This document shows positions 3,429 to 24,654 of a DNA stretch of 64,000 nucleotides, one piece after another. This DNA comes from an uncultured Bacillota bacterium (GTDB taxonomy: Bacteria > Sysuimicrobiota > Sysuimicrobiia > Sysuimicrobiales > Segetimicrobiaceae): the NCBI GenBank assembly GCA_963804645.1, contig CAWDRG010000017.1:32001-96000 (forward strand). Reading direction: 5' to 3'. The translations under genes were made by a program, and so were the position numbers. The notes beneath the pieces were generated by a model. The model worked only from the letters and a program-made list of their open reading frames with translations. It was not told the origin of the DNA and searched no databases. Each line of letters begins with the position of its first letter. The stretch's first letter is position 1.

Positions 3429-3440
3429 CGCTGCCTCCCG

Positions 3441-4004: not shown

Positions 4005-4099
4005 TCAGCCGTCTTCCAGATGCCCGCGATCGCGAATATTGGACACGTATGGTACTCTGGGGAACGGCCCCGGCGCATCCGGGGGAGATCGGTGAATCG

Positions 4100-4504
4100 A
4101 TGCTGACCGACGCGCAGCGCGCATTCCTCCAGCCACCACGGCTCGCGCATCTCGCGACCGTCGGCGCTCGTGCGACGCCTCACGTGGTCCCTGTCTGGTA
4201 CCAACTGGACGGCCACGCATTCTACTTTACGACGGTCATGACACGCCGCACGGCCAGGTACCTCCTGCGCGATCCGCGCGCGACGTTCGTCGTCGACGAC
4301 GCCGAACCGCAGGGCCGTCAGGGCATTGAGATCGAGTGCGTCGTCGAGTTTCTGCCCCACGAAGCCGAGCGGGTCGCCCGCGAACTCGCCCTCCGCTACC
4401 TGGGCCCCGTGGAAGGTCCGGTCTACGCGGCCGGCATGATCGCCACCCCCGGCCGCAGCGCGATTCGGGCCGTGCCGCAGCGCGTCCGCAGTTGGGGCAT
4501 GTAG
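4100..4504 (+). CDS. Pyridoxamine 5'-phosphate oxidase-like (split-barrel flavin/F420-binding) protein
   Basis: [30 protein letters not shown], ends VRSWG. Confidence 0.82.
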
Positions 4505-4562: not shown

Positions 4563-5597
4563 TCACGCCTCCGCCCCCGATCCCACCAGCCGTCCCAGCA
4601 CTTCGTCGGCGAACACGCGCATCGGCGTCAGCGGTCCCGCGTCGTCCACGGGCCAAAGCCGGAGCGCGAAGTGGGACACGCCCGCCGCCGCGAGCGCGCG
4701 CAGTTTCGCGAGGCATTCGGGCGGCGTCCCCGCCACGGTGAACGTGTCGACCACCTCGTCGGGGATGAGTCCCAGCACGTCGTCCTGGAGCGTCCAGTGG
4801 TCGCCGTACCGGACCTTCGCCATCACCGCCTCGAGCGGTGCGGGCAGCGTGACGCCGAAGGTCGGGAGCACGTCGCGGCTCGAGAGCAGGATGCCGAACA
4901 CCACGAGACGCGCCCGCCGCCGGACGCGCCGCGCATCCGTCCCGATGACGGTGTGCGTCCACGCCGCCACCCGAAGGTCGTGGCGCGTCCGGCCAGACTT
5001 CCGGAGCCCCGCCTCCACCGGCACCATCGCCCGGCTCACGGCCGCGGGGCTGGCGAGCCCGCCGAGCATCACCCCATCCGCGACCTCGCCCGCGACCTCC
5101 AGGATCCGGGGGCCGCGGCCGGCAATGTAAATCGGCGGCACTGCCACCGGGCCAAAATCCATGCCGCCGTGAAAATGGACCGGCGCGTCCATCGCCACCT
5201 GCCCGCCGGCGAACAACGTGCGCAGCAGCTGCACGGTGGCGCGGATCGACGCGGCAGGCCGATGGACCACCGTGCCCATCGCGGCGAATCCGCTGATCCC
5301 CGCCCCGAGCCCCACGACGACCCGTCCATGCGAGGCCTCCTGCAGCGTGGCCAGACAGGTCGCGGTGATCGCGGGGTGCCGCACGAACGGGTCGGTGACG
5401 CAGGGCCCGAGCCGGACGGCCCGGGTGTGCCGCGCGACGGCGGTCAGCGTCACCATGACGTCGCGGAAGAACCGCTCGTCCGGCACCCAGATGTGGTCAA
5501 AGCCGCGCGCCTCCGCCTCCGCGGCGGCGTCGGCCAGCTCGCGCACCGGCAGCGCCGGCAGCAGCCCGACGCCGACGCTGATCGCGGGGCCGGTCAT
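4563..5597 (-). CDS. LLM-class (Mer-like) flavin/F420-dependent oxidoreductase
   Basis: GFDHIWVPDE, LGPCVTDPFVRHPA, GLGAG, IYIAGRGPRILEVAGEVADG. Confidence 0.9.
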   Translation of the reverse strand: MTGPAISVGVGLLPALPVRELADAAAEAEARGFDHIWVPDERFFRDVMVTLTAVARHTRAVRLGPCVTDPFVRHPAITATCLATLQEASHGRVVVGLGAGISGFAAMGTVVHRPAASIRATVQLLRTLFAGGQVAMDAPVHFHGGMDFGPVAVPPIYIAGRGPRILEVAGEVADGVMLGGLASPAAVSRAMVPVEAGLRKSGRTRHDLRVAAWTHTVIGTDARRVRRRARLVVFGILLSSRDVLPTFGVTLPAPLEAVMAKVRYGDHWTLQDDVLGLIPDEVVDTFTVAGTPPECLAKLRALAAAGVSHFALRLWPVDDAGPLTPMRVFADEVLGRLVGSGAEA

Positions 5598-6754
5598 CGG
5601 ACGAGAAGCTCCCGCGGCGCGTTCGAGAGGAAGTCGTAGCCCGTCTCGGTGACCACGACGTTATCCTCGATGCGAAACGCGCCGATGCTGAAGTCGTAAA
5701 TACCGGGCTCGATCGCCAGCACCATGCCCGGCTGGAGCGTGACCTTCACGCCGGGCCCGATCGATGGTTCTTCGTGGACTTCGGTCCCGAGGCTGTGCCC
5801 GGTCCGGTGCAGCATATGCTCGCGGTAGCCGCGGCGCACGATCGATGCCTCGACCTGCCGGTCCAGCTCCTCGCAGGTGATGCCCGGCCGGACAGCCCGC
5901 ACCGCATCCCAAAAGATCTCGGCGCTGGCCTCGTAGAAACGCCGCTGCCGATCGCTTGGCTCCCCGATGAAAAACCCTCGGGTGAGGTCGCCGTGATAGC
6001 CGTTGTACACCGCCCCGCAGTCGAACGTGACCATCTCGCCCCGCGACAACGTCCGCGTCGTCGCCGGGGCGTTCAACATCGCGTACCGCTGCGGGCCCGA
6101 GGCGATGCTCAGTGAGCGCACGGTGTCGGCGCCCTCGCGCATCATCGTGGTCCCCATCACGACCTGGAGCTCTCGCTCGGTCACCCCCTCCCGCATCACC
6201 TCGAGGGCCGCGACGATGCTGGCATCGGTGATGCGGCACGCCTCCCGCATGTAGGCGACCTCCTGCGGAGACTTGATCATGCGGAGATCCCACAGGATCG
6301 AGGCGCTGTCGACCCACGTTGCGGCCGGCAGCAGCCGCTGCAGCTGCCCGTACTGCTCGAGCGTCATGCCGAGCCGCTGCCCGCGGGTCTGCTCGATGCC
6401 GACGCGGCCGGCGGCCAGCCGCTTCTCGTCCATCACGATCTTGATCAGCTCGAGCGGGTCGCGGGCGACCGAGCCCATCCCGACGCCCCATCCCCGCACG
6501 TCGGCGATCCAGCCGGTCGCTTCGCCCTGCCACACTTCGAGGTTCGGCAGCAGCAGCACGGGGGCCGACGCCAGCGGGATCACCGCCGTGAACGGCCGGA
6601 ACGTGCTGGAAAACAGGTTCGTGCGGTAGCCCGTGAGGTACGTCAGGTTTCGATTCGCGGTGACGAGGAGCGCATCGATGCCCGCCTTCGACATCGCCGC
6701 GCGCGCGCGGGCCAGCCGCCCCTCGTATTCCGTCTTCGTGAACACGTCGTCCAT
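5594..6754 (-). CDS. M24 family Xaa-Pro peptidase/creatinase-like hydrolase
   Basis: N-terminal creatinase domain (NLTYLTGY), RMIKSPQE, metal ligands FDCG, GDLTR, GHSLG..HE, IEPG, RIED. Confidence 0.92.
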   Translation of the reverse strand: MDDVFTKTEYEGRLARARAAMSKAGIDALLVTANRNLTYLTGYRTNLFSSTFRPFTAVIPLASAPVLLLPNLEVWQGEATGWIADVRGWGVGMGSVARDPLELIKIVMDEKRLAAGRVGIEQTRGQRLGMTLEQYGQLQRLLPAATWVDSASILWDLRMIKSPQEVAYMREACRITDASIVAALEVMREGVTERELQVVMGTTMMREGADTVRSLSIASGPQRYAMLNAPATTRTLSRGEMVTFDCGAVYNGYHGDLTRGFFIGEPSDRQRRFYEASAEIFWDAVRAVRPGITCEELDRQVEASIVRRGYREHMLHRTGHSLGTEVHEEPSIGPGVKVTLQPGMVLAIEPGIYDFSIGAFRIEDNVVVTETGYDFLSNAPRELLVR

Positions 6755-6776: not shown

Positions 6777-8324
6777 CTACTTGGTCACCCAGGTCTGACT
6801 GAGATCGATCAGCTCGACCGGGGTCCCGTGGAACCCGTGGACGCGCTTGTTCACGCCGTAGATATTGTTCGTATAGTAGATTTCCTTGGCGACCGTGTCC
6901 CGCACCAGAAGGATCGATTCCATCTGGTCGTACATCTTCTGCCGCGCGATGGGGTTGTCCGAGGCCTCCGCGTCGGTGAGCATCTTGTCGAAGTCCGGGT
7001 TGTTGTAATCCCAGTAGTTGAACGCCGAGTGCGACTGGAAGTTCTGCGCCAGCGCCTGCGCCGGGTCGCCGGTGATCCAGCCCCAGCCGATCAGAAAGAT
7101 CGGACCTTGGTGCCGGGCGAGCGCGTCGAGGTACGCGCCCCACTCCATGACCTTCACATCGGCCTTCACGTTGATCTGCTGGAGCTGCTGCTGCACGGTC
7201 TCGGCGATCTGCCGGTCGCCGAGGTAGCGGCCCTCGGGCGTCCAGAACTCGGTGGTGAAGCCGTTCGGAAACCCGGCCTCCGCCAGCATCTGCTTCGCCT
7301 TCGCGGCGTCGAACGGGACGTCGGCGCACGGCGTCGTCGCCATGACCTCGGGCGGGATCATCCCGCACTTCGCCTCCCGGCCGAGCCCGTTCAGCACGTA
7401 CTTGATGATCGGGCCCCGGTCGATCGCCATCGCGAGCGCCTGCCGCACCTTGACGTTGTCGAACGGCGGCTTCGTCACGGTGAAGCCCACGCGGACGTCG
7501 CGGGTGGACGGACTGATATCCAGCGTCAGGTTGGGGGTGCTCCGGATCTGTGCGGCGAGGTTGGACGGCGGGTTCGAGATGACATCGACCTGCCCGCCCC
7601 GGAACGCCAGATACCGCGTGCTGTCATCGGAGATCGTCCGGAACACGACCTGATCCAGATACGGCTTGCGGCCCCAGTACGTGGGATTGCGCACCAGGCG
7701 CAGTTGCTGGTTCGGCGTCCAGTCCGCGAGCATGAACGGACCGGTGCCGACCGGATGCGTATTCGGATCGGGGGCGCCGGGGCGAAGCTCCGACGGGCTG
7801 AGCACCGCGGCCACGGGCGCCGCGAGGTTCTGAAGGAACGGCGCGAAGGGACGCTTCAGCCGGATGACCACGCGGTAGTCGTTCACCACGTCCACGCCGG
7901 CGATCACTCCGACGTACCCGGCGCTCCGCGGTGCGGCCGCGGCGCGCTCCATGCTCGTCTTCAGCGCCTGCGCGTTGAACGGGGTCCCGTCCGAGAATTT
8001 CACCCCCTGCCGGAGGTCAAACCGCCACGAGGTGGCCGACAGCTCCAGCCAGTCGAGTGCGAGCGCGGGGCGGATGTGGAGATTGAGGTCGAACTGCACC
8101 AGCGTGTCGAAGATCAGGTTGCTCACGACGATGTCCGTCGCCGCCTTGTAGTTGTGGGGGTCGAGCGTCAGCGCGTCCGTCCCGAACGCGATCGTGACGC
8201 TGCCGCCCGGCGCGGGGGTCTGCGCGAACGTGCCGGTGGTCGATAGGAACAGCGCCAGCACCACCACCGCCGCCGCAGCGATCCACCCCGATCGATGTAC
8301 CCCAAGCTGTTGCATCCCGAACAC
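6777..8324 (-). CDS. ABC transporter substrate-binding protein, family 5 (peptide/opine/nickel; GsiB/DppA-like)
   Basis: Signal peptide, LDP, LRQGVKFSDGTPFNA, GTGPF, PFDNVKVRQALAMAID; the start may be the ATG at 8315. Confidence 0.93.
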   Translation of the reverse strand: MFGMQQLGVHRSGWIAAAAVVVLALFLSTTGTFAQTPAPGGSVTIAFGTDALTLDPHNYKAATDIVVSNLIFDTLVQFDLNLHIRPALALDWLELSATSWRFDLRQGVKFSDGTPFNAQALKTSMERAAAAPRSAGYVGVIAGVDVVNDYRVVIRLKRPFAPFLQNLAAPVAAVLSPSELRPGAPDPNTHPVGTGPFMLADWTPNQQLRLVRNPTYWGRKPYLDQVVFRTISDDSTRYLAFRGGQVDVISNPPSNLAAQIRSTPNLTLDISPSTRDVRVGFTVTKPPFDNVKVRQALAMAIDRGPIIKYVLNGLGREAKCGMIPPEVMATTPCADVPFDAAKAKQMLAEAGFPNGFTTEFWTPEGRYLGDRQIAETVQQQLQQINVKADVKVMEWGAYLDALARHQGPIFLIGWGWITGDPAQALAQNFQSHSAFNYWDYNNPDFDKMLTDAEASDNPIARQKMYDQMESILLVRDTVAKEIYYTNNIYGVNKRVHGFHGTPVELIDLSQTWVTK

Positions 8325-8345
8325 CTCCCAGTCGTCTCGTGCCCG

Positions 8346-9377
8346 CTAGTGCTGCGTCCCTGGATGAGCGTGGTGGTACGGCCGGATGACCGCCTCGGCG
8401 AACTCTGTCATGAACTGTTCAAGCGTCTGCTCGGGAACGACCCACGGCAGCACGCCGATCTGCGTGACCCCTTGGCGCTCCAGCTCCGCGACCCGGCGGA
8501 GGCAGACGGCGGCATCCCCCGCCATCGTGAAATGCGCCAGCACGTCGTCGGGGACGTGCGAGGCCGCGCGCAGCATGCTTTCGGAGTGCATCCCATAGGT
8601 CACGGTCGCGAGCTCTTCGCGGAGCCCGGGCGGCAGCACGACCCCGAGATCATCGAGCACCGGCAGCGACGACACCAGCACCCCGACGACGATCGTGCGG
8701 ACGGCGTCCCGGGCGCGCGCGCCGTCCGACGCGAACGCGGTGTGCAGCCACAGCATGGTCTCGAACCCCTCCAGGCTGCGGCCGCTGCGGGCCGCCCCCG
8801 CGCGAATGTGGCGCGTCGCGTAGGCAAACGTCGACGGCGACGCCAGTGCGCCGATGATCACGCCATCGGCGATCTCGCCCGCCAGTTCCAGGATCCGCGG
8901 ACCGCGGCCGGCGATGTAGACCGGGATCGAGGCGCGCGCGGGGAAGTCCAGGCGTGCGCCGTGCGCACGCACGATCTGCCCCTCCTGCGTCACGCGCTCC
9001 CCGGCCAGCAGGCCGCGGATCAGCGCGATCGCCTCACGGATCGCCGTGGCCGGACGGTCGCGCTTCATGCCCATCGCGGCGAAACCGGCGGCGCCCGCGC
9101 CGATGCCGAGGATCGCCCGGCCGTCGGCCAATTCGTCCACGGAAGCCATCGCCGCGGCCGTCAGCGCCGGATGGCGCGAGTACGGATCCGTCACGCACGG
9201 CCCCAGCGCCACGCGCGTCGTGCGCTCCGCGACGTCCGCCAGCGTCACGTAGCAGTCGCGGTAGAAGCGCTCGTCCGGAATCCAGACGACGTCAAAGCCG
9301 AGCGTCTCGGCCAAGACGGACAGCCGCACGTTCTCGTCGTGCACCGCCACGGGCGTCAGCCCGATCCCAAACCGCAT
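8346..9377 (-). CDS. LLM-class (Mer-like) oxidoreductase, paralog of 4563..5597
   Basis: MRFGIG, GFDVVWIPDERFYRD, LGPCVTDPYSRHPA, IAGRGPRILELAGEIADG; ATG 9377 after GGGAGG. Confidence 0.9.
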   Translation of the reverse strand: MRFGIGLTPVAVHDENVRLSVLAETLGFDVVWIPDERFYRDCYVTLADVAERTTRVALGPCVTDPYSRHPALTAAAMASVDELADGRAILGIGAGAAGFAAMGMKRDRPATAIREAIALIRGLLAGERVTQEGQIVRAHGARLDFPARASIPVYIAGRGPRILELAGEIADGVIIGALASPSTFAYATRHIRAGAARSGRSLEGFETMLWLHTAFASDGARARDAVRTIVVGVLVSSLPVLDDLGVVLPPGLREELATVTYGMHSESMLRAASHVPDDVLAHFTMAGDAAVCLRRVAELERQGVTQIGVLPWVVPEQTLEQFMTEFAEAVIRPYHHAHPGTQH

Positions 9378-9459
9378 GACTACGGTACCTCCCTTCTCGT
9401 CGGACGCGGCCCCGACGCGCGTGGCCCGTGCGGGGGACGCGGCGCCGAGCCGTCGCGCC

Positions 9460-10330
9460 TCACCGAGACAACCGCGGATCGAGCGCGTCCCGCAGACCGT
9501 CACCGAGCAGATTCAGTGCTAGCACCAGCGTCATCAGGAACACCCCGGGAATCACCATAATGTGCGGCGCGTCGAACAGGTAGTTCCGCCCGTCGCTGAC
9601 CATGAGGCCCCACTCCGGCACCGGCGGCTGGGCGCCGAGCCCGAGGAAGCTCAGCCCCGCGATCGCGAGGACGTCCCCGCCCAGGCCGACCGTCGCCAGC
9701 ACGATGATCGGCGCCATCACGTTCGCGAGTACGTGCTGCCGCATCGCGCGCAGGTCGGACGCGCCGATCGCGTGCGCCGCCTCCACGTACTCCTGGCGGC
9801 GCACCTGCAGCACCGCCCCGCGCACCACGCGCACGTACTGCGGCATTTTCGTGATCCCGACCGCCGCCGCCGCCGTCCACAGCCCCGACCCGACGATCGC
9901 CACGATCAGAATCGCCAGCAGAAAATACGGGAAGGCGAGCAGGAGGTCGGTGAATCCGCATCATCCAGCCCGTCGGACCAGCCCCCGTAGTAGCCGGCCA
10001 GCATCCCAAACGGCGTGCCGATGCACAGGCCGATGGCCGTCGCCACCGCGGCGCCGCCGAGGGTGAACCGCGCGCCGTCGACGACGCGGGCGAGCATGTC
10101 CCGCCCGAGCGCGTCGCGCCCGAACCACCCCGCAGTCCCCGGCGGCGCGGCGCGCTGCGCCAAGATCTGCGCGCTGGGGTTCAGGCTCGACACGAACGGA
10201 CCGACCGCCGCCATCACGACCACCAGCCCCACGACCACCAGGCCCGCCGCAGCCGCGCGGTCCCGGCGCAGCCGCGGCCACATCTGCCGCACGAGGCCGC
10301 GGCCGGCCCGCTCCCCGCGAGCCCCGACAT
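9460..10330 (-). pseudogene. ABC transporter permease (DppC/OppC-like), frameshifted near 9955-9965
   Basis: N-half (FGRDALGRDMLAR, GMLAGYYGGW) and C-half (TDLLLAFPYF, EYVEAAHAIGAS, LSFLGLGAQPP.PEWG, GDGLRDALDP) lie in different frames. Start is either the ATG at 10330 coupled to the upstream permease (needs a further indel) or ATG 10283. Possibly a sequencing artefact. Confidence 0.82.
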
Positions 10331-11250
10331 TAGGCGTAGCGGATCCTCGGGTCGAGGTACGCATACGCCACATCGACCGCAAGGTTGATGACCGCGAACA
10401 CCCCGGCCACCAGCAGGATCGCGCCGCGGATGATCGCGTAGTCGCGGGCGAGCACGGCCGTGAGCAGCAGCGTCCCCAGCCCGGGCAGGGCGAACACCGA
10501 CTCGGTCAGCACCGCCCCGGCCAGCACCGCCCCGAACTGCAGGCCGATCACGGTCGTCACGGGCACCAGCGCGTTCCTCAGCACGTGGCGCGCGACGACC
10601 CGCGCGGTGCCCAGGCCTTTCGAATGGGCGGTCCGGACGTAATCGGAGGCGACCACCTCGAGCACGCTGCTCCGGGTCATCCGCGCGATCGCGGCCAGCG
10701 GAAACGCGGCGAGCGTGATGACCGGCAGGACGACCTGCTGGGGCGTGCCCCACCCGGAGACCGGAAAGATCGGGAATTTGATCGCGAACCACGAGATCAG
10801 CAATAGACCCAGCCAGAAGATCGGGATCGAGACCCCGCCGAGCACGATCCCGCGCGCGAGGTAGTCGATCCAACTGTACCGGCGGAGCGCGGAGAGGCAC
10901 CCGACCGACATGCCGATGATCGTCGCCACCGCGACGGACAGGGTCGCGAGGACGAACGTGACCTGGAACGTCCGTCCCAGTTCACCGGTCACCGGGCGCT
11001 TGGTCTCGAACGACCGACCCAGGTTGCCCTGCGCCGCCCCGCCGACGAACGCGACGTACTGCGCGAGCAGGGGCCGGTCCAGCCCGAGCTCGTGCCGGAC
11101 CTGCGCGATGCCGGCCGGCGTCGCGTCCTGTCCGAGCATCAACACGGCGGGGTCGCCGGGCGCGAACCGCAGCGCCACGAACACCAGCGCCGACACCGCC
11201 AGCAGGAGCGGGATCAACGCGAGAATCCGGCGCAGCACGTAGGCCGTCAC
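10330..11250 (-). CDS. ABC transporter permease (DppB/OppB-like)
   Basis: YVLRRIL, PGDPA, LGLDRPL..QY, DYVRTAHSKGL, ESVFALPGLG, AYLDPRIR. Confidence 0.95.
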   Translation of the reverse strand: MTAYVLRRILALIPLLLAVSALVFVALRFAPGDPAVLMLGQDATPAGIAQVRHELGLDRPLLAQYVAFVGGAAQGNLGRSFETKRPVTGELGRTFQVTFVLATLSVAVATIIGMSVGCLSALRRYSWIDYLARGIVLGGVSIPIFWLGLLLISWFAIKFPIFPVSGWGTPQQVVLPVITLAAFPLAAIARMTRSSVLEVVASDYVRTAHSKGLGTARVVARHVLRNALVPVTTVIGLQFGAVLAGAVLTESVFALPGLGTLLLTAVLARDYAIIRGAILLVAGVFAVINLAVDVAYAYLDPRIRYA

Positions 11251-12449
11251 GATGCCCCGGCCGCCGCGGCCGCGTACACCTTCGCCGCGTCCACCACCTG
11301 GCTGACGCTCACGTGCTCGCGCTCGCCGGCGTCCCCGATCAGCCCGGGGCCGAGCGCGACGCTCGGCATCGCGTGCACGCGGATCAAATAGCCGGCGTTG
11401 CTCGCGAACGTGATGTATGTGTGTTCCGCGGGACGCCCGAGGGCGGCGCGCACGGCCCGCTCGACGCGCTGCACGACCGGGGCCGAGGGTGACACCCCGT
11501 AGGGGGACATCCCGCTCACCTGGCCCACCCGCGCGGTGATGCGGGGGCGCGAGGCGGCGGCCCGATCGGCGAGTGCCTGGAGCACGTCCCGGATCGCCTC
11601 CGGCGACTCCTGCGGCAGGACGCGCCGGTCGAGCATCACGCAGCAGGCACCCGGCGTCCTCGGCGCCACGGCGGAGGACTCCACCTGGAACGCCGAGATC
11701 GTGGCCGCGCCGAGGGCCGGATCCGACGGAAGGTCCAGGCGCTCGATCGACGGGAGGAACGCCGCCAGCGCGAAGAGCGGATTCGCGGCGTCCTGCGGAC
11801 GCCCCCAGTGCGCCGGCACCCCCTCGAACTCGACCGCGTAGTGCGCGATCCCCCGAGCGCCGAGCACGATCGCGTTGTGCGACGGCTCGCCCGCGATGCA
11901 GATCCCCTCGCGCAGCAGCCCGATCGCGTCCGCCTCGCGAACGCCCTCATGATTGGCGGACAGATCCTTCGTGACCGCGGCGAGCTGCACGCGGCCGGGC
12001 AGCGCCCCCGCGTGCGGGGCGAGCGCCGCCATCGCCGCGAGCATCGCGGCAAGCGCCGCCTTCGGCGCGCACGCCCCGCGGCCGTAGACGACCTGACCGT
12101 CCTTGCCGAAGGGTGCGCCGTCGAGCACGACGCCGCTGTACGGATCCGTCATCGTCCCGGCGGGCCCGGAGTCGGTGTGCGTAAGCAGCAGGACGCCCGG
12201 GCCATCCCGCGGCCCCAGGTCGCCGAGCACGTTCCAGTGCTCGTCGACGGTGACGCGGGCGCCCAGCCCGCGGAGCCGCCCCGCGACGTATTCCGCCACA
12301 TCGCGCTCCTGCCCGGTCGTCCCGGGAATCTGCACCAGCGCCCGCAGCGTCCGGATCGTCTCGTCGGCATCGATCTCCGCCGCGATCCTCTCAACCTCCG
12401 GCACCCGCTCCGCCCCTTCCCGACCCGCTCGATCGACGGCCGCGGGCAC
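11247..12449 (-). CDS. M20/ArgE-DapE family metallo-hydrolase
   Basis: LLTHTD, YGRGACAPKA, GEPS, GVPAH, EHVS. The usual YGRG..D and DEE acidic positions appear substituted. Confidence 0.8.
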   Translation of the reverse strand: MPAAVDRAGREGAERVPEVERIAAEIDADETIRTLRALVQIPGTTGQERDVAEYVAGRLRGLGARVTVDEHWNVLGDLGPRDGPGVLLLTHTDSGPAGTMTDPYSGVVLDGAPFGKDGQVVYGRGACAPKAALAAMLAAMAALAPHAGALPGRVQLAAVTKDLSANHEGVREADAIGLLREGICIAGEPSHNAIVLGARGIAHYAVEFEGVPAHWGRPQDAANPLFALAAFLPSIERLDLPSDPALGAATISAFQVESSAVAPRTPGACCVMLDRRVLPQESPEAIRDVLQALADRAAASRPRITARVGQVSGMSPYGVSPSAPVVQRVERAVRAALGRPAEHTYITFASNAGYLIRVHAMPSVALGPGLIGDAGEREHVSVSQVVDAAKVYAAAAAGAS

Positions 12450-12473: not shown

Positions 12474-14057
12474 CTAACAGTACGTGGCGTATTCGCGCCC
12501 ATCGATCGGCACGCTGATCACCGCGGGCTGGCCGCCGCGGATCGCGTCCTCGACGGCGCGGCTCAGGTCGGACAGCGATCGCACCCGCGTTCCCGCCACT
12601 CCAAATCCGGTGGCGATCGCCGCGAACTCCGGCGCCGGAAAGTCTACGCCGTACGGTTCGAGCTTGCGCCGCTGCTGCCCCACCCGAATCAGGCTCAAGC
12701 TGTCGTCGACAAAGCACACGACGACGACCGGGACCCGATACTGCCTGAGAAAACTCAGGTTGTGCAGCATCATGAGGAGCCCGCCGTCGCCCACGAGCGC
12801 GATCGTCGGCCGATCGGGAAACTGCAGCTTCGCAGCGATCGCGGCCGGGAGGCCGTAGCCCATGCCGGACAGCCCGTTCGACATGAAAAACGTGTTCGGC
12901 TCGTAACTCTCCCAGAACTGACCGGCGTAGTACTTGTGGGAGCCGACGTCGCACGCGAGGATGGTCTCCCGCGGCGCCGCCGCCCGGATCGCCCGCACGC
13001 ACGCGAGCGGGCTGAGGCCCTCGACGGTGGACATGGGCGCGGGCCGCACGCGGGCGCGGCCCGCAGCGACCGCGTCCTCGGGCCACGCGGCAGGGTGCGC
13101 CGAGATCCGCAACTGCGCGAGCAGCCCGCCGATCTCTCCGCGCACCTCAAGCGGCCGGTACGTACCCTCCGCGGTGCTGGAGCGCGAGAGGTTCGCGAGC
13201 GACCGGCCCACATACCAATCCTTATCGCACTCGACGGGGTCGAAGCCCACGCCCAGGAGGAAATCGGCTTGATCGACGGTCTCCATCACCGCGCCGTCCA
13301 CCGCCATGCCGCCGACCACCCCGAGAAACCCCGGGGCATCCTCGGGCAGGAGGCCCTTCGCCTTGGGCGTCACGACGAACGGCATGTGCGTCGCATCCAC
13401 GAAGCCCCGCAGCGCCGGCGCATCCAGGGGACGGCAGCCGAGACCGACGACGAGCAGCGGCCGCACCGCCGCGTTGAGCGCGGCGCGGATCTCGTCGAGC
13501 GACGCGCCCCCGCCGGGCGCATCGGGCTCGGGGCCCGGCGCCGCGGCGGCGCCGGGCTGTGCGGCCGCGCCGGCGAGATTGCTCGGCAGCGCGAGGTGGA
13601 CCGGCCCCGGGGGTTCTCCGGTCGCCACTTTGACGGCGCGGCGGACCGTTTCCGCCGTGCCGCGGCCGTCGAGGGTCTGGCTCCACTTCGTGATCGAGCC
13701 GAAAAATCGGTCCAGCGGAAGCCGCTGATGGGGGAAATGGGGCTCGAGCGCGGTCGACAGCTGCGCCGTGATCGCGAGCACGGGCGACCGGTCGAGCAGC
13801 GCGTTCGACACCCCGAGCGCAAGGTTCACGGCGCCGGGGCCGAGCGTCGCGAGACACACCCCCGGCCGGCCGGTGATCTGACCGGTCACATCCGCCATGA
13901 ACGCCGCGCTGGCCTCGTGACCGGTCAGGAAGAAGCGGATCCCGGCGCGGCGGCACGCGTCGAGCAGGAGCGTGATCTCGCCCCCGGGAAGGCCGAAGGC
14001 GATCTCGGTCCCGCTCTCCACCAGTGTCGCCGCGATCGCGTCGGCGTTGGTCGTCAT
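12474..14057 (-). CDS. ThDP-dependent enzyme, acetolactate-synthase-like
   Basis: FGLPGGE, HEASAAFMA, TLGPGA.N, PPGPVHL, SNGLSGMGYGLPAAIAAKL, GDGG motif. Confidence 0.92.
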   Translation of the reverse strand: MTTNADAIAATLVESGTEIAFGLPGGEITLLLDACRRAGIRFFLTGHEASAAFMADVTGQITGRPGVCLATLGPGAVNLALGVSNALLDRSPVLAITAQLSTALEPHFPHQRLPLDRFFGSITKWSQTLDGRGTAETVRRAVKVATGEPPGPVHLALPSNLAGAAAQPGAAAAPGPEPDAPGGGASLDEIRAALNAAVRPLLVVGLGCRPLDAPALRGFVDATHMPFVVTPKAKGLLPEDAPGFLGVVGGMAVDGAVMETVDQADFLLGVGFDPVECDKDWYVGRSLANLSRSSTAEGTYRPLEVRGEIGGLLAQLRISAHPAAWPEDAVAAGRARVRPAPMSTVEGLSPLACVRAIRAAAPRETILACDVGSHKYYAGQFWESYEPNTFFMSNGLSGMGYGLPAAIAAKLQFPDRPTIALVGDGGLLMMLHNLSFLRQYRVPVVVVCFVDDSLSLIRVGQQRRKLEPYGVDFPAPEFAAIATGFGVAGTRVRSLSDLSRAVEDAIRGGQPAVISVPIDGREYATYC

Positions 14058-14216: not shown

Positions 14217-15095
14217 TTATTTCGAGCCCGCAAACGCTTGGTTGAACTCGTTCCACGGAATGCTCACGTCGAGCCACAGATTCAAACGCCCGACGTACAC
14301 GATCAGCGCATCGACCATTTCGCCCGCGTGCGGCGCGGGCAGCTCAGGGAGCGCGCCCGCCGCGAGTTCGAGCACCGCCGCCGCGCGGTCGAGCTGGTAC
14401 CATCCCCGCAGCCGCCCCGCCGCGTGGCGAAGCAGACGTGACGCGAAGGGCGGAACCGCGCCCGTCGCGCGCGCCTCCTGACGCAGAAGCCACAGCGCCT
14501 CCTGGAGGGTTCGGGTATCGCCCTCCGCGTACAGCAGCGGACCCGCGGGGCGCATGACGTCGCGCGCGCGGAGCAGCGCCGACACCTCCTCAGGCACGCA
14601 GTCGGCGATCCCGGCGTAGGCGGCGTCGATCTGTCGCGCGACCGCCGCGCCGCGCGCCGCAGGACCGCTCCGGCCAACGCCGCCGGCGCGATGTGCCGGC
14701 GTGAGGGCGCGCAGCCGCGCGATCGGGTGCCCATCCCCGTGCGGCCGCCGCAGCCGTTCGCCGGCCGCCGCCAGGGCGTCGAGGTTGTCGACGACCTGGC
14801 CCAACACGGTCACCGTGGCATCCTCTTCCTGGATGCGACCGTAGTAGACGCAAAAGAGCTGCCGATCCGGCCAGAACGCGACACAGCCGCGCGGGAGCAC
14901 CGCGACCGGCCGCGCGCGCTCGACCTCCAACACGACCGGAAGATGGAGCATGAATTCGTCGCCCGCGATCTTGGCGTAATGTGCGGTGGTCGAGAACGGC
15001 AGCAGTCTCTCAAGCGCCGCGCACGTGGCCGGAGCGGACTCGGGATCGAGCCGAGCGCGCGCCGCGGTTCCCTCGAGGTCGATCTCGATCTCCAC
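14217..15095 (-). CDS. DUF3830/cyclophilin-like N-domain plus helical C-domain; McbB/cucumopine-synthase-like protein (about 292 aa)
   Basis: APATCAALERLLP..HYAKIAGDE..VAFWP..CVYYGRIQEE..GQVVDNLDALAAAG and C-terminal YAEGDTRTL...DALIVYVGRLNLWLDVSIPW; GTG 15095 with GGAGG upstream. The 5' part of the track ORF is the antisense shadow of the regulator. Confidence 0.7.
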   Translation of the reverse strand: MEIEIDLEGTAARARLDPESAPATCAALERLLPFSTTAHYAKIAGDEFMLHLPVVLEVERARPVAVLPRGCVAFWPDRQLFCVYYGRIQEEDATVTVLGQVVDNLDALAAAGERLRRPHGDGHPIARLRALTPAHRAGGVGRSGPAARGAAVARQIDAAYAGIADCVPEEVSALLRARDVMRPAGPLLYAEGDTRTLQEALWLLRQEARATGAVPPFASRLLRHAAGRLRGWYQLDRAAAVLELAAGALPELPAPHAGEMVDALIVYVGRLNLWLDVSIPWNEFNQAFAGSK

Positions 15096-15154
15096 GACGG
15101 TACGGTGAACCTCCGGCAGTTGGCAGGCGTCGCGCCCATTTTGGGGACGAGTTC

Positions 15155-15190
15155 GCAGGGAAATTGCACCAGGGGTGGAATATTTCCTGC
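15155..15190. promoter_or_regulatory. Imperfect inverted repeat in the divergent promoter region; candidate operator for the XRE-cupin regulator
   Basis: GCAGGGAAATT...AATATTTCCTGC in an AT-richer spacer between divergent genes. Confidence 0.45.
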
Positions 15191-15227
15191 CACATTGTGT
15201 TCGTACTTCAACTCCAGGCGGCGCTTG

Positions 15228-15815
15228 GTGGGCAAGACACGCATCGACGACGGACTCCCCGTCGACCGTCCTTCCGCCGGCATCGGGGAAAAATTGGCGT
15301 CCCTGCGCAAGCAGCGGGGCCTGACCCTGGTCGAGCTGGCCGGCGCCGCCGGCACGAGCCCGAGCTTCCTCAGCCAGCTCGAGCGCGGCACCACCAACGC
15401 GTCGATCGATACGCTTCGCCGCATCGCCACCGCCCTCGGCGTGCCGATGTTTCACCTGTTCGTCGATGAGCCGAGCGCGCTCTGGGTCGTGCGCCGCAAC
15501 GGGAGGAAACGGCTGTCGTATCCGGATTCCGGCGCCACCTACGAACTGCTGGTGCCCGATCTCAACCGAGAAATGGAGCTGGTCCTGATCACGCTGGACG
15601 AGGGGCGCGCGACGTTCGACGCCCCGTTCAGCCATGCCGGGCACGAATGCGACGTGGTCCTTGAGGGCGAGGTACGGTTCGAGATCGGCAGTCGGCTCGA
15701 GGCGCTGGAGGCGGGCGACGCGATTTACTTCGACTGCACCATTCCGCACCGGTTCGTGAACGTCGGGCGCGGTGCGGCGCGGCTCCTGTCGGTCGTCTCA
15801 CCACCAACGTTCTAA
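15228..15815 (+). CDS. XRE-family HTH regulator with C-terminal cupin sensor domain
   Basis: IGEKLASLRKQRGLTLVELA..SPSFLSQLERG..SIDTLRRIATALGV; HAGHE..VLEG..LEAGDAIYFD...PHRF.N. Confidence 0.93.
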   Translation: MGKTRIDDGLPVDRPSAGIGEKLASLRKQRGLTLVELAGAAGTSPSFLSQLERGTTNASIDTLRRIATALGVPMFHLFVDEPSALWVVRRNGRKRLSYPDSGATYELLVPDLNREMELVLITLDEGRATFDAPFSHAGHECDVVLEGEVRFEIGSRLEALEAGDAIYFDCTIPHRFVNVGRGAARLLSVVSPPTF

Positions 15816-15828
15816 GGAGCGAGACCGC

Positions 15829-16836
15829 GTGAGCCTGCACAGCGGGACCCAAGTCGAGGCGGCGGCCGTCGAGCCGTCCCGCCAGCAGTTGGAGGAGATG
15901 TACCGCCGGATGTGCGCGGTGCGCGAGCTCGAGGAGGAGCTCGGGCGTCAGCACAAGCTCGGGACCACCCGCGGACCAATTCACCGCTGCGACGGGCAGG
16001 AGGCGGTCGGCGTCGCCGTGACCGCCGCGCTCGCGCCGACCGACATCGTCACGAGCACGCACCGGGGGCACGCCCACTACATCGGCAAGGGCGCCGATCT
16101 CCGCCGCCTCGCCGCGGAGATCTTCGGCCGGAAAACCGGATACTGTCTCGGCCGCGCCGGGCACATGCTTGTCGCCGACGCCTCGATCGGACTGCTGGGC
16201 GGGAACGGGATCGTGGGCGGCGCCATTCCGGTGGCGACGGGTCAGGCGTTTGCGTTCCAGGTGCAGCGCAGCGGCCGCGTCGTGGCGTGCTTCTTCGGCG
16301 AGGGCGCCGCGCAGATCGGTGCGTTTCACGAATGCCTCAACGTCGCCGGCCTGTGGCGGCTCCCGATCGTGTACGTCTGCGAGCACAATCACTACGGACT
16401 CACGGTCCATGTACGTCATCAGTCGAGCGTGGCGGACATTGCGCCGCGCGCGGCGGGCTACGGCATGCCGGGCGTGACGGTCGACGGGAACGACGCCGCG
16501 GCCCTGTATCGCGCGGCGCACGAGGCGGTCGCGCGCGCCCGCAGCGGCGGCGGGCCGACGCTGATTGAGGCCAAGACCTACCGGATGACCGGGTTCTCCA
16601 CGAGCGACCTCGGCGGCTATGAATTGCCGGACGAGCGCGCGGCGTGGGCACCGAAGGACCCGATCCAGCGGCTCCACCGTGCGCTCGCGGCCGCGGGCTC
16701 CGCCCCCGAGCGGCTCGACACACTGGCCCGGACCGCGCGCGAGCAGGTCCAGGACGCCATCGCCTTCGCGCTCGCGAGCCCGTTGCCGACCGCCGAGGAC
16801 CTGTGGGGCGACGTGTACGCGACGGAGGCGCCCTGA
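15829..16836 (+). CDS. ThDP-dependent 2-oxoacid/acetoin dehydrogenase E1 alpha-like subunit
   Basis: GQEAVGV, STHRGHAH, NGIVGG, FFGEGA, VCEHNHYG, DGND, GPTLIEAKTYR. Confidence 0.92.
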   Translation: MSLHSGTQVEAAAVEPSRQQLEEMYRRMCAVRELEEELGRQHKLGTTRGPIHRCDGQEAVGVAVTAALAPTDIVTSTHRGHAHYIGKGADLRRLAAEIFGRKTGYCLGRAGHMLVADASIGLLGGNGIVGGAIPVATGQAFAFQVQRSGRVVACFFGEGAAQIGAFHECLNVAGLWRLPIVYVCEHNHYGLTVHVRHQSSVADIAPRAAGYGMPGVTVDGNDAAALYRAAHEAVARARSGGGPTLIEAKTYRMTGFSTSDLGGYELPDERAAWAPKDPIQRLHRALAAAGSAPERLDTLARTAREQVQDAIAFALASPLPTAEDLWGDVYATEAP

Positions 16837-16837
16837 G

Positions 16838-17827
16838 ATGCGGGAGCTGCGGTACGCGGAAGCCCTCCACGAGTCGCTCGTCTCGGAGATGCGCCGGGAC
16901 CCGCGCGTCATCGTCTTCGGCGAGGACGTCGGCATCTACGGCGGCGTCTTCAAGGTCACGAAGGACCTGCAGCAGGAGTTTGGCGCGGAGCGCGTCCGCG
17001 ACACGCCGATCGCCGAGGAAGCGATCGTGGGGCTCGCAATCGGATCCTCGATGATGGGCCTGCGCCCCGTCTGCGAGATCATGTACGTGGATTTCCTGCC
17101 GCTCGCCCTCGATCAACTGATCAACCAGGCCTCTCTGATGCATTACATCTGGGCGGGCCAGGTCCAGCTCCCCTTCGTGCTGCGCACGCAGGGCGGCGCG
17201 GGCGGCGCCGCCGGCGCGCAGCACTCCAAGAGCCTCGAGGCGATCGTCGCGCACATCCCGGGGCTGAAGGTCGTCATGCCGGCGACGCCCGCGGACGCGA
17301 AGGGCCTGCTCACCGCGTCGATCCGGGATCCCAATCCGGTCGTGTTCATCGAGCACAAGATGCTGTACAACACCCGCGGGCCCGTGCCGGAGGGCGAGCA
17401 CCTCGTCCCCCTCGGCGTCGCCGACATCAAACGGCCGGGCGGCGATGTCTCGATCGTCGCCACCTCGCGGATGGTGCTCGAAGCGCTGCGGGCCGCCGAG
17501 GAACTCGAGCGGGACGGCGTCTCCGCCGAGGTCGTTGATGTCCGCACCCTGCGGCCGCTCGACGTGGCCACGATCGTCGCGTCGGTCAAGCGGACACACC
17601 GCGCGGTGGTCGTCAACGAGGGATGGCGCACGGGAGGCTTTGGGGCCGAACTCGCGGCGGTGATCGCGGAAGAAGCGTTCAGCTACCTCGACGCGCCGGT
17701 CCAGCGGCTGGGCGCGGCGGACCTGCCCGTCCCCTACAGCCCAGGGCTGGAGCCGGCGTCCGTGCCGGACGCGGCCGCGATCGCGCGGGCGGCGCGCTCG
17801 GCGCTGCGCGCGGCGGACTTGGTGTGA
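16838..17827 (+). CDS. 2-oxoacid/acetoin dehydrogenase E1 beta subunit
   Basis: GEDVGIYGGVF, RVRDTPIAE, AQHS, PGLKVV, NPVVFIEHK, YLDAPV. Confidence 0.95.
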   Translation: MRELRYAEALHESLVSEMRRDPRVIVFGEDVGIYGGVFKVTKDLQQEFGAERVRDTPIAEEAIVGLAIGSSMMGLRPVCEIMYVDFLPLALDQLINQASLMHYIWAGQVQLPFVLRTQGGAGGAAGAQHSKSLEAIVAHIPGLKVVMPATPADAKGLLTASIRDPNPVVFIEHKMLYNTRGPVPEGEHLVPLGVADIKRPGGDVSIVATSRMVLEALRAAEELERDGVSAEVVDVRTLRPLDVATIVASVKRTHRAVVVNEGWRTGGFGAELAAVIAEEAFSYLDAPVQRLGAADLPVPYSPGLEPASVPDAAAIARAARSALRAADLV

Positions 17828-17837
17828 GCGGCGTCCG

Positions 17838-19007
17838 ATGCCGGTAGAGGTGCGGCTCACCGCCGTGGCGGGCGAGTACATGGCCACCGCCGTGGTGCAG
17901 GAGTGGCTCGTCCAGGAAGGCCAGCCGGTCGCCGAGGGCGCGCCGCTGGTGGTCGTCGAGACGGCGAAGGCGAACGTCGAGATCCCGGCCCCGGCGACCG
18001 GCGTGCTGCAGCAGATCGTCGTGGCGCGGGGGGATGAGGCGCCGGTCGGCGCCCTGCTGGCCGTGATCGCGTCTGCGGGTGAACGGGCAGCGCCTCCCGC
18101 GACGGTGACGGCCCGCGAGGCCACGCGGACCGAGCCGAGCCCGAAGACCGACACGACGCCGGCGCCCGAGCCGCAGGCCCCCGGCGGCTTCGTGCGCGCC
18201 ACGCCCCGGGCGCGGGCGCTGGCCCGGGAACTCGGGGTGCCGCTCGCGCGGGTGACGGCCGCAGGGGGCGGCGTCGTCTCCGAGGAGGACGTGCGCCGCG
18301 CGGCTTCCGCCGCGCGGCCCGCACCCCGCGTCGAGCAGCTCGAGGGGTACCGCCGCGCGGCCGCGGAGCACATGGCGCGCGCGCTCGAGGTCCCGCAGTT
18401 CTCGGTGTCGATGACCTTCGACGCGACACGGCTCGACGAGACGCGCGCGGCGCTCAAACGGGCGGACCCCGAGGACGGCGCGGTCATCCCGAGCGTGACC
18501 GAGTTCGTCGTGAAAGCGGCGGCCCTGGCACTCAGGCGGCATCCCCGCGTCAACGCCCGGTGGGAAGATGGACGCGTCCGCGCCCTGGACGACGTCAACG
18601 TGGGTGTCGCGGTGGCGACGGACCGGGGACTCGTCGTCCCGGTGCTCCGGGCCGCGGACACCCGCGCGCTGTCGGACCTCGCGGCGGGCCTGGCCGGGCT
18701 GCGCACGCGCGCGGAGGCGTTTCGCCTCGCCCCGGAGGACGTTCAGGGGGGCACCTTCACCGTGTCGAACCTCGGCATGTTCGGGGTCGAGCACTTCACC
18801 GCGCTCGTCAATCCGCCGCAGGCCGCGATCCTGGCCGTCTCCGCGGTCACCGCGCGGGTGGTGTGGGTGAGCGGAGAGGCCCGTCCCCAGCGGCGGGGCG
18901 ATCTGACCCTCACGGCGGACCACCGTGTGATCGACGGCATGGACGCGGCGCGCTTCCTTGGCGACATCAAGGCGCTGCTGGAGCAACCCGACGGCCTCCT
19001 GGCGTGA
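17838..19007 (+). CDS. Dihydrolipoamide acyltransferase (E2) with one lipoyl domain
   Basis: VETAKANVEI lipoyl Lys, ATPRARALARELGV E3-binding domain, GGTFTVSNLGMFG, DHRVIDG. Confidence 0.93.
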   Translation: MPVEVRLTAVAGEYMATAVVQEWLVQEGQPVAEGAPLVVVETAKANVEIPAPATGVLQQIVVARGDEAPVGALLAVIASAGERAAPPATVTAREATRTEPSPKTDTTPAPEPQAPGGFVRATPRARALARELGVPLARVTAAGGGVVSEEDVRRAASAARPAPRVEQLEGYRRAAAEHMARALEVPQFSVSMTFDATRLDETRAALKRADPEDGAVIPSVTEFVVKAAALALRRHPRVNARWEDGRVRALDDVNVGVAVATDRGLVVPVLRAADTRALSDLAAGLAGLRTRAEAFRLAPEDVQGGTFTVSNLGMFGVEHFTALVNPPQAAILAVSAVTARVVWVSGEARPQRRGDLTLTADHRVIDGMDAARFLGDIKALLEQPDGLLA

Positions 19008-19073: not shown

Positions 19074-20237
19074 ATGAAGTTCTTGGAGTTCTCGGTCGAA
19101 GAATATCAGGCGCGGTACGCCGCGGTGCAGCGGTTGATGCGGGAAGCCGACGTGACGGCGCTCGTGCTGAGCGACGCCTCAAACCTCATCTACCTGACCG
19201 GCTACCGGACGATCCTGTTCGCGAGTAAGTTCCGGCCGTTCTACGCGGTCATTCCGGCCCAAGGCGATCCGGTGCTGGTCCTGCCAAACCTGGAGGTCGG
19301 CGATGGGCGGAAGACGTCCTGGATCCAGGATATCCGAGGCTGGGGCAAGGGGCTGTACGCCGACCGTCCGGACGTGTTCACGATCGTCCGCGAGGTCGCG
19401 GACGAGAAGCACCTCCGCACGGGCCGCATCGGGCTGGAGCTCGGGATCGGCCAGCGGCTGGCGATGACGTTCGATCAGTACGAGCAGCTGCGCGAGATCT
19501 TCTCCGGCGCGACGTTCGTCAACGCCGCCGAGATCATGTGGAAGGTCCGCGTCAAGAAGTCGCCGCAGGAGATCGCGTACCTCCGGACCGCGTGCAAGGC
19601 GACCGACGCCGCGTTCGACGCCGCCGTCGCGGCGGCGCGCGAAGGGGTCAGCGAGACCACCCTGCAGCGGGTCCTCGGCGTCACGATGATGGAGCACGGG
19701 GCGGACGCGCCGGGATTCCTGGTCGTCGCGTCGGGGCCCGACCGGTACGACATGCTGAACCCCTACGCATCCTCGCGCACGCTGCAGCGCGGCGACATGC
19801 TGAACTTCGACATCGGGGCGGTCTACAAGAGCTACTGGGCCGATCTCACCCGCGGCATCTTCATCGGCGAGGTGTCGAAGCGGCAGCGGGAATTCTACGA
19901 GGCCGAGGCGGAGATCTTCCGCCGCACGCTGCACGCGGTCAAGCCGGGCATCGCCATTCAGGACGTGGACAAGGTCGCCGAGGCGACGACCCGCGAACTC
20001 GGCTACGAGAAGTACATGCTGCACCGGACCGGGCACGCCCTCGGCCTCGACGTACACGAGATTCCGTCGGTGGCGGTCGGCGACACGACGGTGATGGAAC
20101 CCGGCATGGTGTTTACGATCGAACCCGGGATCTACGACTTCGCGATCGGGGCGTTCCGGATCGAGGACACCGTGCTCGTCACCGACACCGGCTTCGAAAC
20201 GCTCACCAACTGTACGCGTGACCTGATCGTCCGGTGA
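19074..20237 (+). CDS. M24 family Xaa-Pro peptidase-like hydrolase, paralog of 5594..6754
   Basis: NLIYLTGYRT, KKSPQE, FDIG, ADLTRG, GHALG..HE, IEPG, RIED. Confidence 0.92.
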   Translation: MKFLEFSVEEYQARYAAVQRLMREADVTALVLSDASNLIYLTGYRTILFASKFRPFYAVIPAQGDPVLVLPNLEVGDGRKTSWIQDIRGWGKGLYADRPDVFTIVREVADEKHLRTGRIGLELGIGQRLAMTFDQYEQLREIFSGATFVNAAEIMWKVRVKKSPQEIAYLRTACKATDAAFDAAVAAAREGVSETTLQRVLGVTMMEHGADAPGFLVVASGPDRYDMLNPYASSRTLQRGDMLNFDIGAVYKSYWADLTRGIFIGEVSKRQREFYEAEAEIFRRTLHAVKPGIAIQDVDKVAEATTRELGYEKYMLHRTGHALGLDVHEIPSVAVGDTTVMEPGMVFTIEPGIYDFAIGAFRIEDTVLVTDTGFETLTNCTRDLIVR

Positions 20238-23694: not shown

Positions 23695-24543
23695 TCACCG
23701 CAGCAGATCTGGCGGCACCCCCTGCCCGTAGGGGCTCGTGACGTCCAAGGTCGCGAGATACCCGTACACCGTCCGCGACACGTCGGCGATAAATCGCTCC
23801 GCCACCGACCGGTCCGGCGGGCCGTACTTCGTCATGACGCAGATCGCGTACGGCCGGCGCTTCAAATAGACGATCGCCGCGTCGGTCTTGATCCGATCCA
23901 TGCCGCCCGGCTTGTTGGCGATCAGCACATCCTGCGGCAGGCCCTCCGCGATCCATCCGCGCTTCGGCTTCTTCAGAATGTTCAAGGTCTCGTCGCACAC
24001 GAAGCGGCTCAAGCCCTCGCCCCGATGCAGCGCCATCAGCATCTGCACGCCCTCCGCGGGTGAGGCGACGTTCTCGTCCCCGCGCAGCACCGACGCGTGA
24101 TCCTGCATCTTGCGGCGTAGCGTCGTCTTGGTCAGGCCGAGCTTCCGCAGCATGGCGTTGGTCCCGTCGATCGTCGCCCAATCGATGCACAGGTTTGTCG
24201 CCGTGTTGTCGGACACGATGATCATGAGGATGGCCACGTCGCGCATCGTCAGGTCCTCGGGATCGTCGAAGTACGTGAGCACCCCGCTCCCGGGCACGCG
24301 CACGGCCTGGTCGATGCGGATGCGCTGCGTAAGATCCAGCTCGCCAGCCTCGACGCGCTGCATCATGCGGGCGAGAATGTGGATCTTGATCATCGACGCG
24401 GTGGGGAACAGTTCGTCGGCGTGGATCGCGATCTGACGGTCGGTGGTCAGATCGCGCACGCAGAGGCCGGCCACCGCGGGAAAGCCGGCCACCTGCCGGT
24501 CGAGCTCGGCGGACAGCCGCCGCCACAACAACTCCTCGGACAT
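23695..24543 (-). CDS. Serine hydrolase, class A beta-lactamase-like fold, no signal peptide
   Basis: FPTASMIK (SxxK), IVSDNTATN (SDN), ANKPG (KxG). Confidence 0.88.
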   Translation of the reverse strand: MSEELLWRRLSAELDRQVAGFPAVAGLCVRDLTTDRQIAIHADELFPTASMIKIHILARMMQRVEAGELDLTQRIRIDQAVRVPGSGVLTYFDDPEDLTMRDVAILMIIVSDNTATNLCIDWATIDGTNAMLRKLGLTKTTLRRKMQDHASVLRGDENVASPAEGVQMLMALHRGEGLSRFVCDETLNILKKPKRGWIAEGLPQDVLIANKPGGMDRIKTDAAIVYLKRRPYAICVMTKYGPPDRSVAERFIADVSRTVYGYLATLDVTSPYGQGVPPDLLR

Positions 24544-24654
24544 GGTCCTCCCCCCTTCTGCAGCAGGCACGCCGCTGATCGTTCTCGGCCGCGCCGCTCA
24601 TGTCCTCGGTGCGCGCGCTGATCGTCGAGGGTCGGGGCGGCCCGTGCGTCGGGG

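Follow-up and report, generated by a model that had tools for sequence, protein, structure and literature searches.

The McbB-like gene considered here lies on the reverse strand of the window (the whole stretch of DNA that was analysed, 64,000 nucleotides), where it opens a run of leftward genes and is separated by 159 bp from the next, the gene of a ThDP-dependent enzyme. The genes on both sides of it are as follows (loci with relatives are referred to by L numbers):

4049..4504, + strand: PNPOx-like flavin/deazaflavin-binding protein, convergent with the leftward run; retained in L050 and L061
4563..5597, - strand: second Mer-like LLM oxidoreductase, by family matches
5594..6754, - strand: M24 creatinase/prolidase-family hydrolase, by family matches
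6777..8324, - strand: family-5 solute-binding protein, by Pfam match
8346..9503, - strand: F420-type LLM oxidoreductase, Mer-like (longest ORF)
9463..10373, - strand: ABC permease 2, in two frames in the window assembly, in a single frame in L057 and L058
10330..11250, - strand: ABC permease 1 (Dpp/Opp type), by Pfam match
11247..12449, - strand: M20 (ArgE/DapE-like) deacylase, by family matches
12474..14057, - strand: ThDP-dependent enzyme, acetolactate-synthase/decarboxylase-like, under all NCBIfam cut-offs shown
14217..15095, - strand: McbB-fold protein, 292 aa, with a cyclophilin-like barrel (residues ~1-131), a linker and a helical bundle (~149-290)
15228..15815, + strand: XRE-HTH and cupin regulator, divergent from the McbB-fold gene; start codon inferred from sequence
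15772..16836, + strand: E1alpha of a 2-oxoacid/acetoin-type dehydrogenase, loop TYRxxGFSTSD (longest ORF; start probably later)
16619..17827, + strand: E1beta, AQH His kept (longest ORF; start probably later)
17838..19007, + strand: E2 acyltransferase, with lipoyl Lys (ETAK) and DHR motif, by family and motif matches
19074..20237, + strand: second copy of an M24 creatinase/prolidase-family hydrolase, by family matches

The first-pass annotation of this DNA described the gene as heading a catabolic-looking operon; its place at the head of the leftward run and the catabolic setting hold, and the operon as such is predicted from gene order. The XRE-cupin regulator also adjoins the McbB-like gene in L050, L057, L059 and L062-L064. 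ABC permease 2 (9463-10373) is intact in L057 and L058, with DNA 98.6-98.8% identical, and its two frames in the window probably reflect an assembly error or a strain-level break. The pattern tested for the Walker-A motif of an ABC ATPase found none in positions 1-64,000 of the window, and the importer probably relies on an ATPase gene outside it. A scan for promoters and terminators gave counts at chance (1 vs 0.8 and 6 vs 4.9). The window also holds a class A beta-lactamase-family (Beta-lactamase2) protein at 23695-24570, and amidohydrolase and MmgE/PrpD-family genes at 26619-29401; MmgE/PrpD genes also occur near plasmid homologues of the McbB-like gene.

The stretch 14217-15095 (-) is a genuine gene. 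Its 292 codons run from GTG to a stop in an uninterrupted frame, within an enclosing open frame of 510 aa (14217-15749), as the initial reading of a roughly 292-aa ORF hidden in a longer frame had it. The long start giving 510 aa was dismissed, as the extension overlaps the opposite-strand XRE-cupin gene and homologues begin at residue 1, with the common start M-E-I-E. The codon-position GC is 0.78/0.52/0.84, and comparison with a 76% identical homologue gives 46/36/113 differences at codon positions 1/2/3, mostly in third positions. In contigs of three RNA runs, the McbB-like gene is uncovered and one 237-base piece falls on E1alpha. An initial homologue search yielded 10 relatives among 8000 candidates scored, and an exhaustive one 177 representatives at E ≤ 0.001. 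Among the matches listed (150 of the 177), 56 have the barrel followed by the bundle, 50 the barrel only, 43 the bundle only and 1 the two domains swapped. A sample of 401 Oscillibacter-class genomes gave, at E ≤ 1e-25, a match only in the centre genome; the gene is rare in this class, not absent.

Single-sequence searches capture the protein incompletely. Pfam returned only DUF3830 and cyclophilin-like matches, with Cucumopine_C (PF18631) absent at E up to 10, and of the two Pfam families named in the first-pass annotation it is therefore DUF3830 alone that matches. A PDB search of the same kind contained neither McbB nor KslB at E up to 10, and NCBIfam gave no matching family at E up to 1e-5. 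A profile of 10 sequences matches McbB (3X27) over its full length (E 2.8e-5), and one of 64 sequences matches it at E 5e-21, together with both KslB domains in swapped order. The segments lined up with McbB in the first-pass annotation appear in the same order in the profile alignments to 3X27. The AlphaFold model (pLDDT = 94), built from P0002 (identical to the window protein except for residue 166 and the start), supports this relation. Foldseek matched the full model to 3x27 with E 1.2e-12 and TM 0.75, and VIA aligned 279 residues of it to McbB (Z 29.8, rmsd 2.7). For the helical domain alone, VIA gave Z 16.7 against 3x27 (rmsd 2.2, 139 residues aligned) and Z 15.0 against KslB, the next fold reaching 10.8; with Foldseek, McbB/KslB entries were top-ranked, the best E of 0.093 being below significance. 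The ESM Atlas showed a TM of 0.79 to a Cucumopine_C cluster. Foldseek and VIA thus both find the cyclophilin-like beta-barrel and alpha-helical bundle of the structural family, and the DUF3830-type N-domain and helical C-domain read from the letters are borne out, the C-domain having its structural match in the McbB bundle. That the protein has the McbB fold is practically certain. The PF18631 model is too narrow, because relatives match it (18/64 at E up to 0.1, both C-halves in L070 reaching the curated cut-off) while the McbB-like protein misses it.

In a tree of 64 full-length rows, the McbB-like protein falls within a 44-row clade with support of 100/100. This clade carries the motifs H39-x-A-K42-I-A-G45, W-P-x-R78-Q79, Q89-x-E91-x-A, E191-x-x-x-R195 and W274-x-D276. 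R78 is present in 44/44 rows, W274 and D276 in 43/44, K42, A44 and E91 in 42/44, Q79 in 41/44, Q89 and R195 in 39/44 and E191 in 38/44; K42 is also found in 12 of the 20 rows outside the clade. HMMER, MAFFT and hhalign place the catalytic Glu of Pictet-Spenglerases (McbB E97, KslB E274, AsKslB E276) opposite E90, which is Glu in 13/44 and Asp in 9/44 rows; conservation and counting back from the downstream Gly favour E91. In either register an acid, E90 or E91, is predicted at the catalytic-Glu site, so the active-site position keeps the acidic residue that the first reading had assigned to it.

The surroundings of this acid differ from those of characterised enzymes, as far as can be judged from a pocket map based on alignment at ~20% identity and not on residue-level superposition. 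The AsKslB carboxylate loop M225-V226-S227 aligns gap-free to K42-I43-A44-G45, with different side chains; the side chain of Met225 projects into the pocket (PMC12547825). The hydrophobic cage for indole or imidazole (AsKslB F55, I59, F98, T263; McbB L85) is not preserved, and this holds clade-wide: F55 is kept as Y189 (Y or F in 28/44), I59 corresponds to D193 (D/E), F98 to L229 (Phe in 1/44) and McbB L85 to R78, a direct KslB alignment shifting the T263/L85 equivalent by one, to D77. AsKslB Thr263, which is equated with McbB Leu85, binds the keto-acid carboxylate, as does K266 a carboxylate (PMC12547825). The 2-oxoglutarate anchors of the KslB subtype, R256/K264 (AsKslB R258/K266), are replaced by A73 and L80. 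The pocket is predicted to be remodelled, more polar and less aromatic than in Pictet-Spenglerases, and Trp/His Pictet-Spengler activity appears unlikely, because K42 and R78 hardly vary and the Phe that stacks on indole is missing. The initial suggestion of a divergent member with new substrates gains support from this predicted pocket.

The conserved partner of the gene is the divergent E1alpha/E1beta/E2 operon, not the importer or hydrolase genes. The importer and hydrolases had at first been taken as its setting; the catabolic context stands, those genes occur only in near relatives (the leftward hydrolase set is restricted to loci of at least 52% identity), and the dehydrogenase operon, the most conserved neighbour, had been missed. 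E1alpha is present in 13 of 23 loci of the 44-row clade and split relatives, which are not independent, many being near-duplicates, and E3 in 5 further short contigs; the remaining 5 loci are short, end near the gene or are rearranged (L061, 63% identical, with no E1 within the 13 kb examined). Independent lineages are the small phylum of the window organism, Oscillospiraceae (L051, L053), Rhizobiaceae (L054-L056) and unassigned metagenome contigs. Of the records in the plasmid collection, 7 carry the McbB-like gene, and among the 247 with an E1alpha match it is the same 7 that reach at least 60% identity, the next one listed being at most 46% identical. The genome of the window organism (G000) has 9 E1alpha hits, of which the window copy best matches the Oscillospiraceae and Neorhizobium partners; it also has 5 E3-like hits elsewhere, none beside the window operon. 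Among 94 genomes of the phylum, including the unpublished G025 and G017, E1alpha above 50% identity is found only in G000 and G070, and the next six, one of them from G025, all have His in the E1alpha loop. The best McbB-like matches are likewise in G000 and G070, the G070 copy being in two frames. A 579-aa protein in which only a C-terminal B12-binding domain is recognised (L054, 8732-10471) is 77-78% conserved beside the Shinella McbB-like gene; this Rhizobiaceae neighbour was dismissed as a core member, having B12-domain matches only and being absent from other loci.

The E1alpha loop reads TYRxxGFS in the window vs TYRYHGHS in the human enzyme. The canonical His (TYRxxGH) is Phe in the window, L050, L051, L053, L054, L057, L062, L063 and L096, and Phe occupies this position in 118/120 nearest homologues, the other two being one fragment and one off-pattern sequence. 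Exceptions are the split relatives L069 (His E1alpha, catalytic Glu absent) and L070 (Ser at the loop His). The ThDP motif, E1beta His, E2 lipoyl Lys and DHR motif of a canonical complex are intact. Replacement of H263 in human PDC lowers activity to near zero, and the equivalent H271 of G. stearothermophilus is tied to acyl transfer (10.1101/2022.05.17.492373). The partner E1alpha is, judged by its sequence, a distinct subtype. The Phe-type subfamily includes named Alphaproteobacteria (Ancylobacter, Kaustia, Pararhizobium).

That the E1/E2/E3 set is the tightest neighbour could also mean that the McbB-like protein is accessory and non-catalytic: it may serve the variant E1/E2 complex in ligand binding or assembly, or be an atypical PPIase. 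Its barrel resembles the uncharacterised cyclophilin-like TM1367 and AF2241, and Glu is absent from some split relatives beside E1 (L069 and one of the two pairs in L070). However, the conserved residues are polar, lie on both domains and map to the Pictet-Spenglerase ligand pocket, which is an enzyme-like pattern, and we give the accessory role only a slim chance. It might further be considered that the variant E1, devoid of the loop His whose loss cripples normal PDC turnover (10.1101/2022.05.17.492373), is diverted to release an aldehyde that the McbB-like protein condenses in a forward, biosynthetic Pictet-Spengler or related reaction; all members characterised in PMC12012969 and PMC12536604 condense. 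The surroundings of the gene speak against this, with importers, GntR, XRE-cupin or LysR regulators and an intact E2 (and E3 in L051 and L053), as do the remodelled aromatic cage and the annotated clade loci, in which no tailoring genes were identified. A44 (42/44) also corresponds to the Ala that replaces Ser in AnCs1, which is PS-inactive (PMC10372676), yet AsKslB S227A is active (PMC12547825). A forward condensation is very unlikely. A catabolic protein functionally tied to the variant E1 is the reading in which we place high confidence.

The distant loci suggest what such a pathway may contain. They add a ProC-like reductase (L051, L053-L056), an OCD/mu-crystallin protein (L051), a Rid protein (L096), a pipecolate-oxidase-like FAD enzyme, DAO, SDRs, amino-acid importers and a proline racemase-family gene (L070). 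The recurring set consists of an importer, a C=N redox enzyme, the McbB-fold protein and E1/E2. By the known chemistry of Mer, C=N redox could in the window be the task of the Mer-like LLM oxidoreductases. Accessory genes other than E1/E2 vary between lineages and, because of this variation, a single substrate for the clade is not implied. Related forms occur in other arrangements. In L070, two different split McbB-fold pairs (3160-4051 and 7592-8424) flank the E1/E2 set, next to the proline racemase-family gene. The window's own genome has a split barrel and bundle pair (L038, G000:C17:562860-563700) among importer, FAD oxidoreductase and amidohydrolase-like genes, and tandem barrel-only DUF3830-like genes are found in it (L047, G000:C9:1075861-1077179) and in relatives (L046, L048, L049), where the runs adjoin family-5 ABC importers.

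It is proposed that a secondary amine resembling an amino acid, either opine-like or a cyclic imino acid, would be imported, released from amide bonds by the M24/M20 hydrolases in the case of the window organism, and then oxidised to an imine by an LLM/F420, ProC-like, OCD-like or FAD enzyme. The McbB-like protein would bind the imine through two carboxylates, that of the amino acid in the backbone loop K42-I43-A44 and another on R78/K42; Glu with water would hydrolyse the C=N bond, reversing the first half of the McbB/KslB reaction. The variant E1/E2 would finally convert the released 2-oxo compound to acyl-CoA. In AsKslB, the iminium forms by Glu276-mediated water loss, with a water bridging Glu276 and the iminium nitrogen (PMC12547825). 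The reverse, imine hydrolysis, would be the simplest catabolic use of such a site.

Imine or iminium hydrolysis feeding a 2-oxo compound to the variant dehydrogenase is the specific chemistry that we favour, tentatively and at somewhat less than an even chance. Simple acyclic imines hydrolyse unaided, so that only a stable or cyclic imine would call for an enzyme. K42 is just as compatible with a Schiff-base mechanism. The protein might then be a Lys42 Schiff-base enzyme of the aldolase, decarboxylase, dehydratase or isomerase type, acting on a keto intermediate that directly precedes or follows the variant E1 step. The distribution of K42 (42/44 members of the clade, 12/20 rows outside) would suit this, as would the several SDRs in distant clusters, which would supply ketones, and the proteobacterial E2, a lipoyl and alpha/beta-hydrolase form that we take to be acetoin-dehydrogenase-like. 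The equivalent AsKslB side chain, that of Met225, points into the pocket (PMC12547825). However, the loops that carry the Glu and bind the carboxylate in iminium-forming relatives are retained, and the Lys could merely bind a carboxylate, as K266 does in AsKslB (PMC12547825). We consider a Schiff-base enzyme unlikely, if worth keeping in view.

If the imine-hydrolysis proposal is extended to the whole gene set, then the McbB-fold protein and the His-to-Phe E1alpha/E1beta/E2 may form the core of an undescribed pathway that breaks down cyclic imino acids or opine-like amines. The Pictet-Spenglerase-type site would cleave C=N, and the variant ThDP enzyme would act non-standardly, for example by splitting a ring-opened 2-oxoacid or an alpha-amino- or alpha-hydroxy-ketone. 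On this view, the Pictet-Spenglerases of biosynthesis would represent a specialised branch within a larger family that is mostly catabolic. This wider picture is speculative, and we regard it as possible rather than probable.

A catabolic siting of the fold has a precedent on Ri plasmids, where homologues have hut, ABC and oxoprolinase genes as neighbours. With the swapped relative P0071 as query, homologues turned up on 27 plasmid records. The plasmid pRi1724 carries a split barrel and bundle pair outside the T-DNA, past its right border motif, where ABC, oxoprolinase and hut genes adjoin it; a second, full-length homologue just inside the border is inferred to be the mikimopine synthase (PMC8087989). 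On pRi2659, hut genes surround two homologues, and the stretch is free of border motifs. These McbB/KslB-fold genes are found at L106 17534-18501 and L105 16264-18549, in the hut-rich regions of pRi1724 and pRi2659. The proteins of the catabolic regions are candidates for mikimopine or cucumopine ring opening, for which a retro-type role is plausible. In the texts searched, mostly outside subscription journals, no paper characterising the pRi1724/pRi2659 McbB-fold proteins was found. A KslB/cucumopine-synthase-like gene directly after hisZ/hisG on a Paraburkholderia symbiosis plasmid (L107, 11968-12954), with an amino-acid ABC importer nearby, is a possible rhizobial opine system.

For the McbB-like protein itself, a retro-Pictet-Spenglerase would open a tetrahydro-beta-carboline, spinacine or cucumopine-type ring to an amino acid and a 2-oxoacid or aldehyde, and a released 2-oxoacid would suit E1/E2. 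The homologues outside the T-DNA among histidine-utilisation genes (pRi1724) and among hut genes (pRi2659) are in line with such a role, as are the aromatic Y189 kept at AsKslB F55 (Y/F in 28/44), R195 at R61, and KslB F89A, equivalent to AsKslB F98A, which is only slightly impaired (PMC12012969). However, F98, the replacement of which by Ala abolishes AsKslB activity (PMC12547825), is L229 here, I59 and McbB L85 have become D/E193 and R78, and no hut or Trp-catabolic genes were seen in the annotated clade loci. The six Ri-plasmid/KslB-like proteins also form a separate long-branched group (SH-aLRT 97 in a quick tree of 46 barrels that carries a long-branch warning). The ring-opening role on Trp/His adducts, raised in the first-pass annotation, is disfavoured as the lead, with the stacking residues replaced, the clade separate and His/Trp catabolic genes not adjoining; we consider it improbable.

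The McbB-like protein is a true member of the McbB structural family and probably not a Trp/His Pictet-Spenglerase, and its clade suggests an uncharacterised catabolic module with a His-less E1alpha. In the main texts searched, mostly outside subscription journals, no description of the McbB-like/E1 module was found. Coverage of the same kind, mostly outside subscription journals, returned no paper on DUF3830 and none linking His271 with pyruvate dehydrogenase reductive acetylation, and the term retro-Pictet-Spengler was absent from the papers searched for it. The McbB-fold enzymes characterised in the literature consulted all build rings. With its altered pocket and fixed catabolic partner, the clade probably harbours a reaction that is new to this fold, which is of interest for biocatalysis, and it has a bearing on the origin of bacterial Pictet-Spenglerases. 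A second enzymological question is the E1alpha loop: replacing its His brings human PDC activity close to zero, yet the His is lost and the change fixed in 118/120 nearest homologues. Substrate screens are feasible, because both genes are present in strains with names (Neorhizobium sp. NCHU2750, Shinella spp. and Oscillibacter sp. PC13).

Among known systems, McbB of Marinactinospora thermotolerans (3X27) has the same domain order and fold, an equally long carboxylate loop and an acid at the Glu97 site. The identity is 19-22%, and McbB L46, S48, L85 and H87 are replaced by K42, A44, R78 and L80 (the McbB numbering assumes a 21-residue tag, which gives the published L85 and E97). The Glu loop of the window protein is one residue longer than that of McbB, and its neighbours are catabolic. 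KslB/AsKslB (9NS6, 9K0A, 9UWA) and cucumopine-synthase-type proteins match in both domains (barrel Z 20.6, bundle Z 15.0), but with the domain order swapped. AsKslB R61 and F55 are kept as R195 and Y189, whereas R258, K266 and F98 are replaced by A73, L80 and L229. The uncharacterised DUF3830 protein 3KOP, TM1367 and AF2241 share the N-terminal barrel (Z 19.0, 17.2 and 13.3) and are devoid of the helical bundle. The pRi1724/pRi2659 proteins, annotated as DUF3830 or hypothetical, share the catabolic siting beside importers and hydrolases and a Glu in the same loop; in contrast to the window protein, they have neither K42 nor R78 and are linked to hut genes, not to E1/E2. For the partner, E1alpha of pyruvate/acetoin dehydrogenases (human 1NI4, TIGR03182) shares the ThDP motif G-E-G...N and matches at a sequence E of 2.7e-54, whereas human H263 is Phe in the window subtype, the TIGR03182 score of which (309.6) lies under the cut-off of 393.85.
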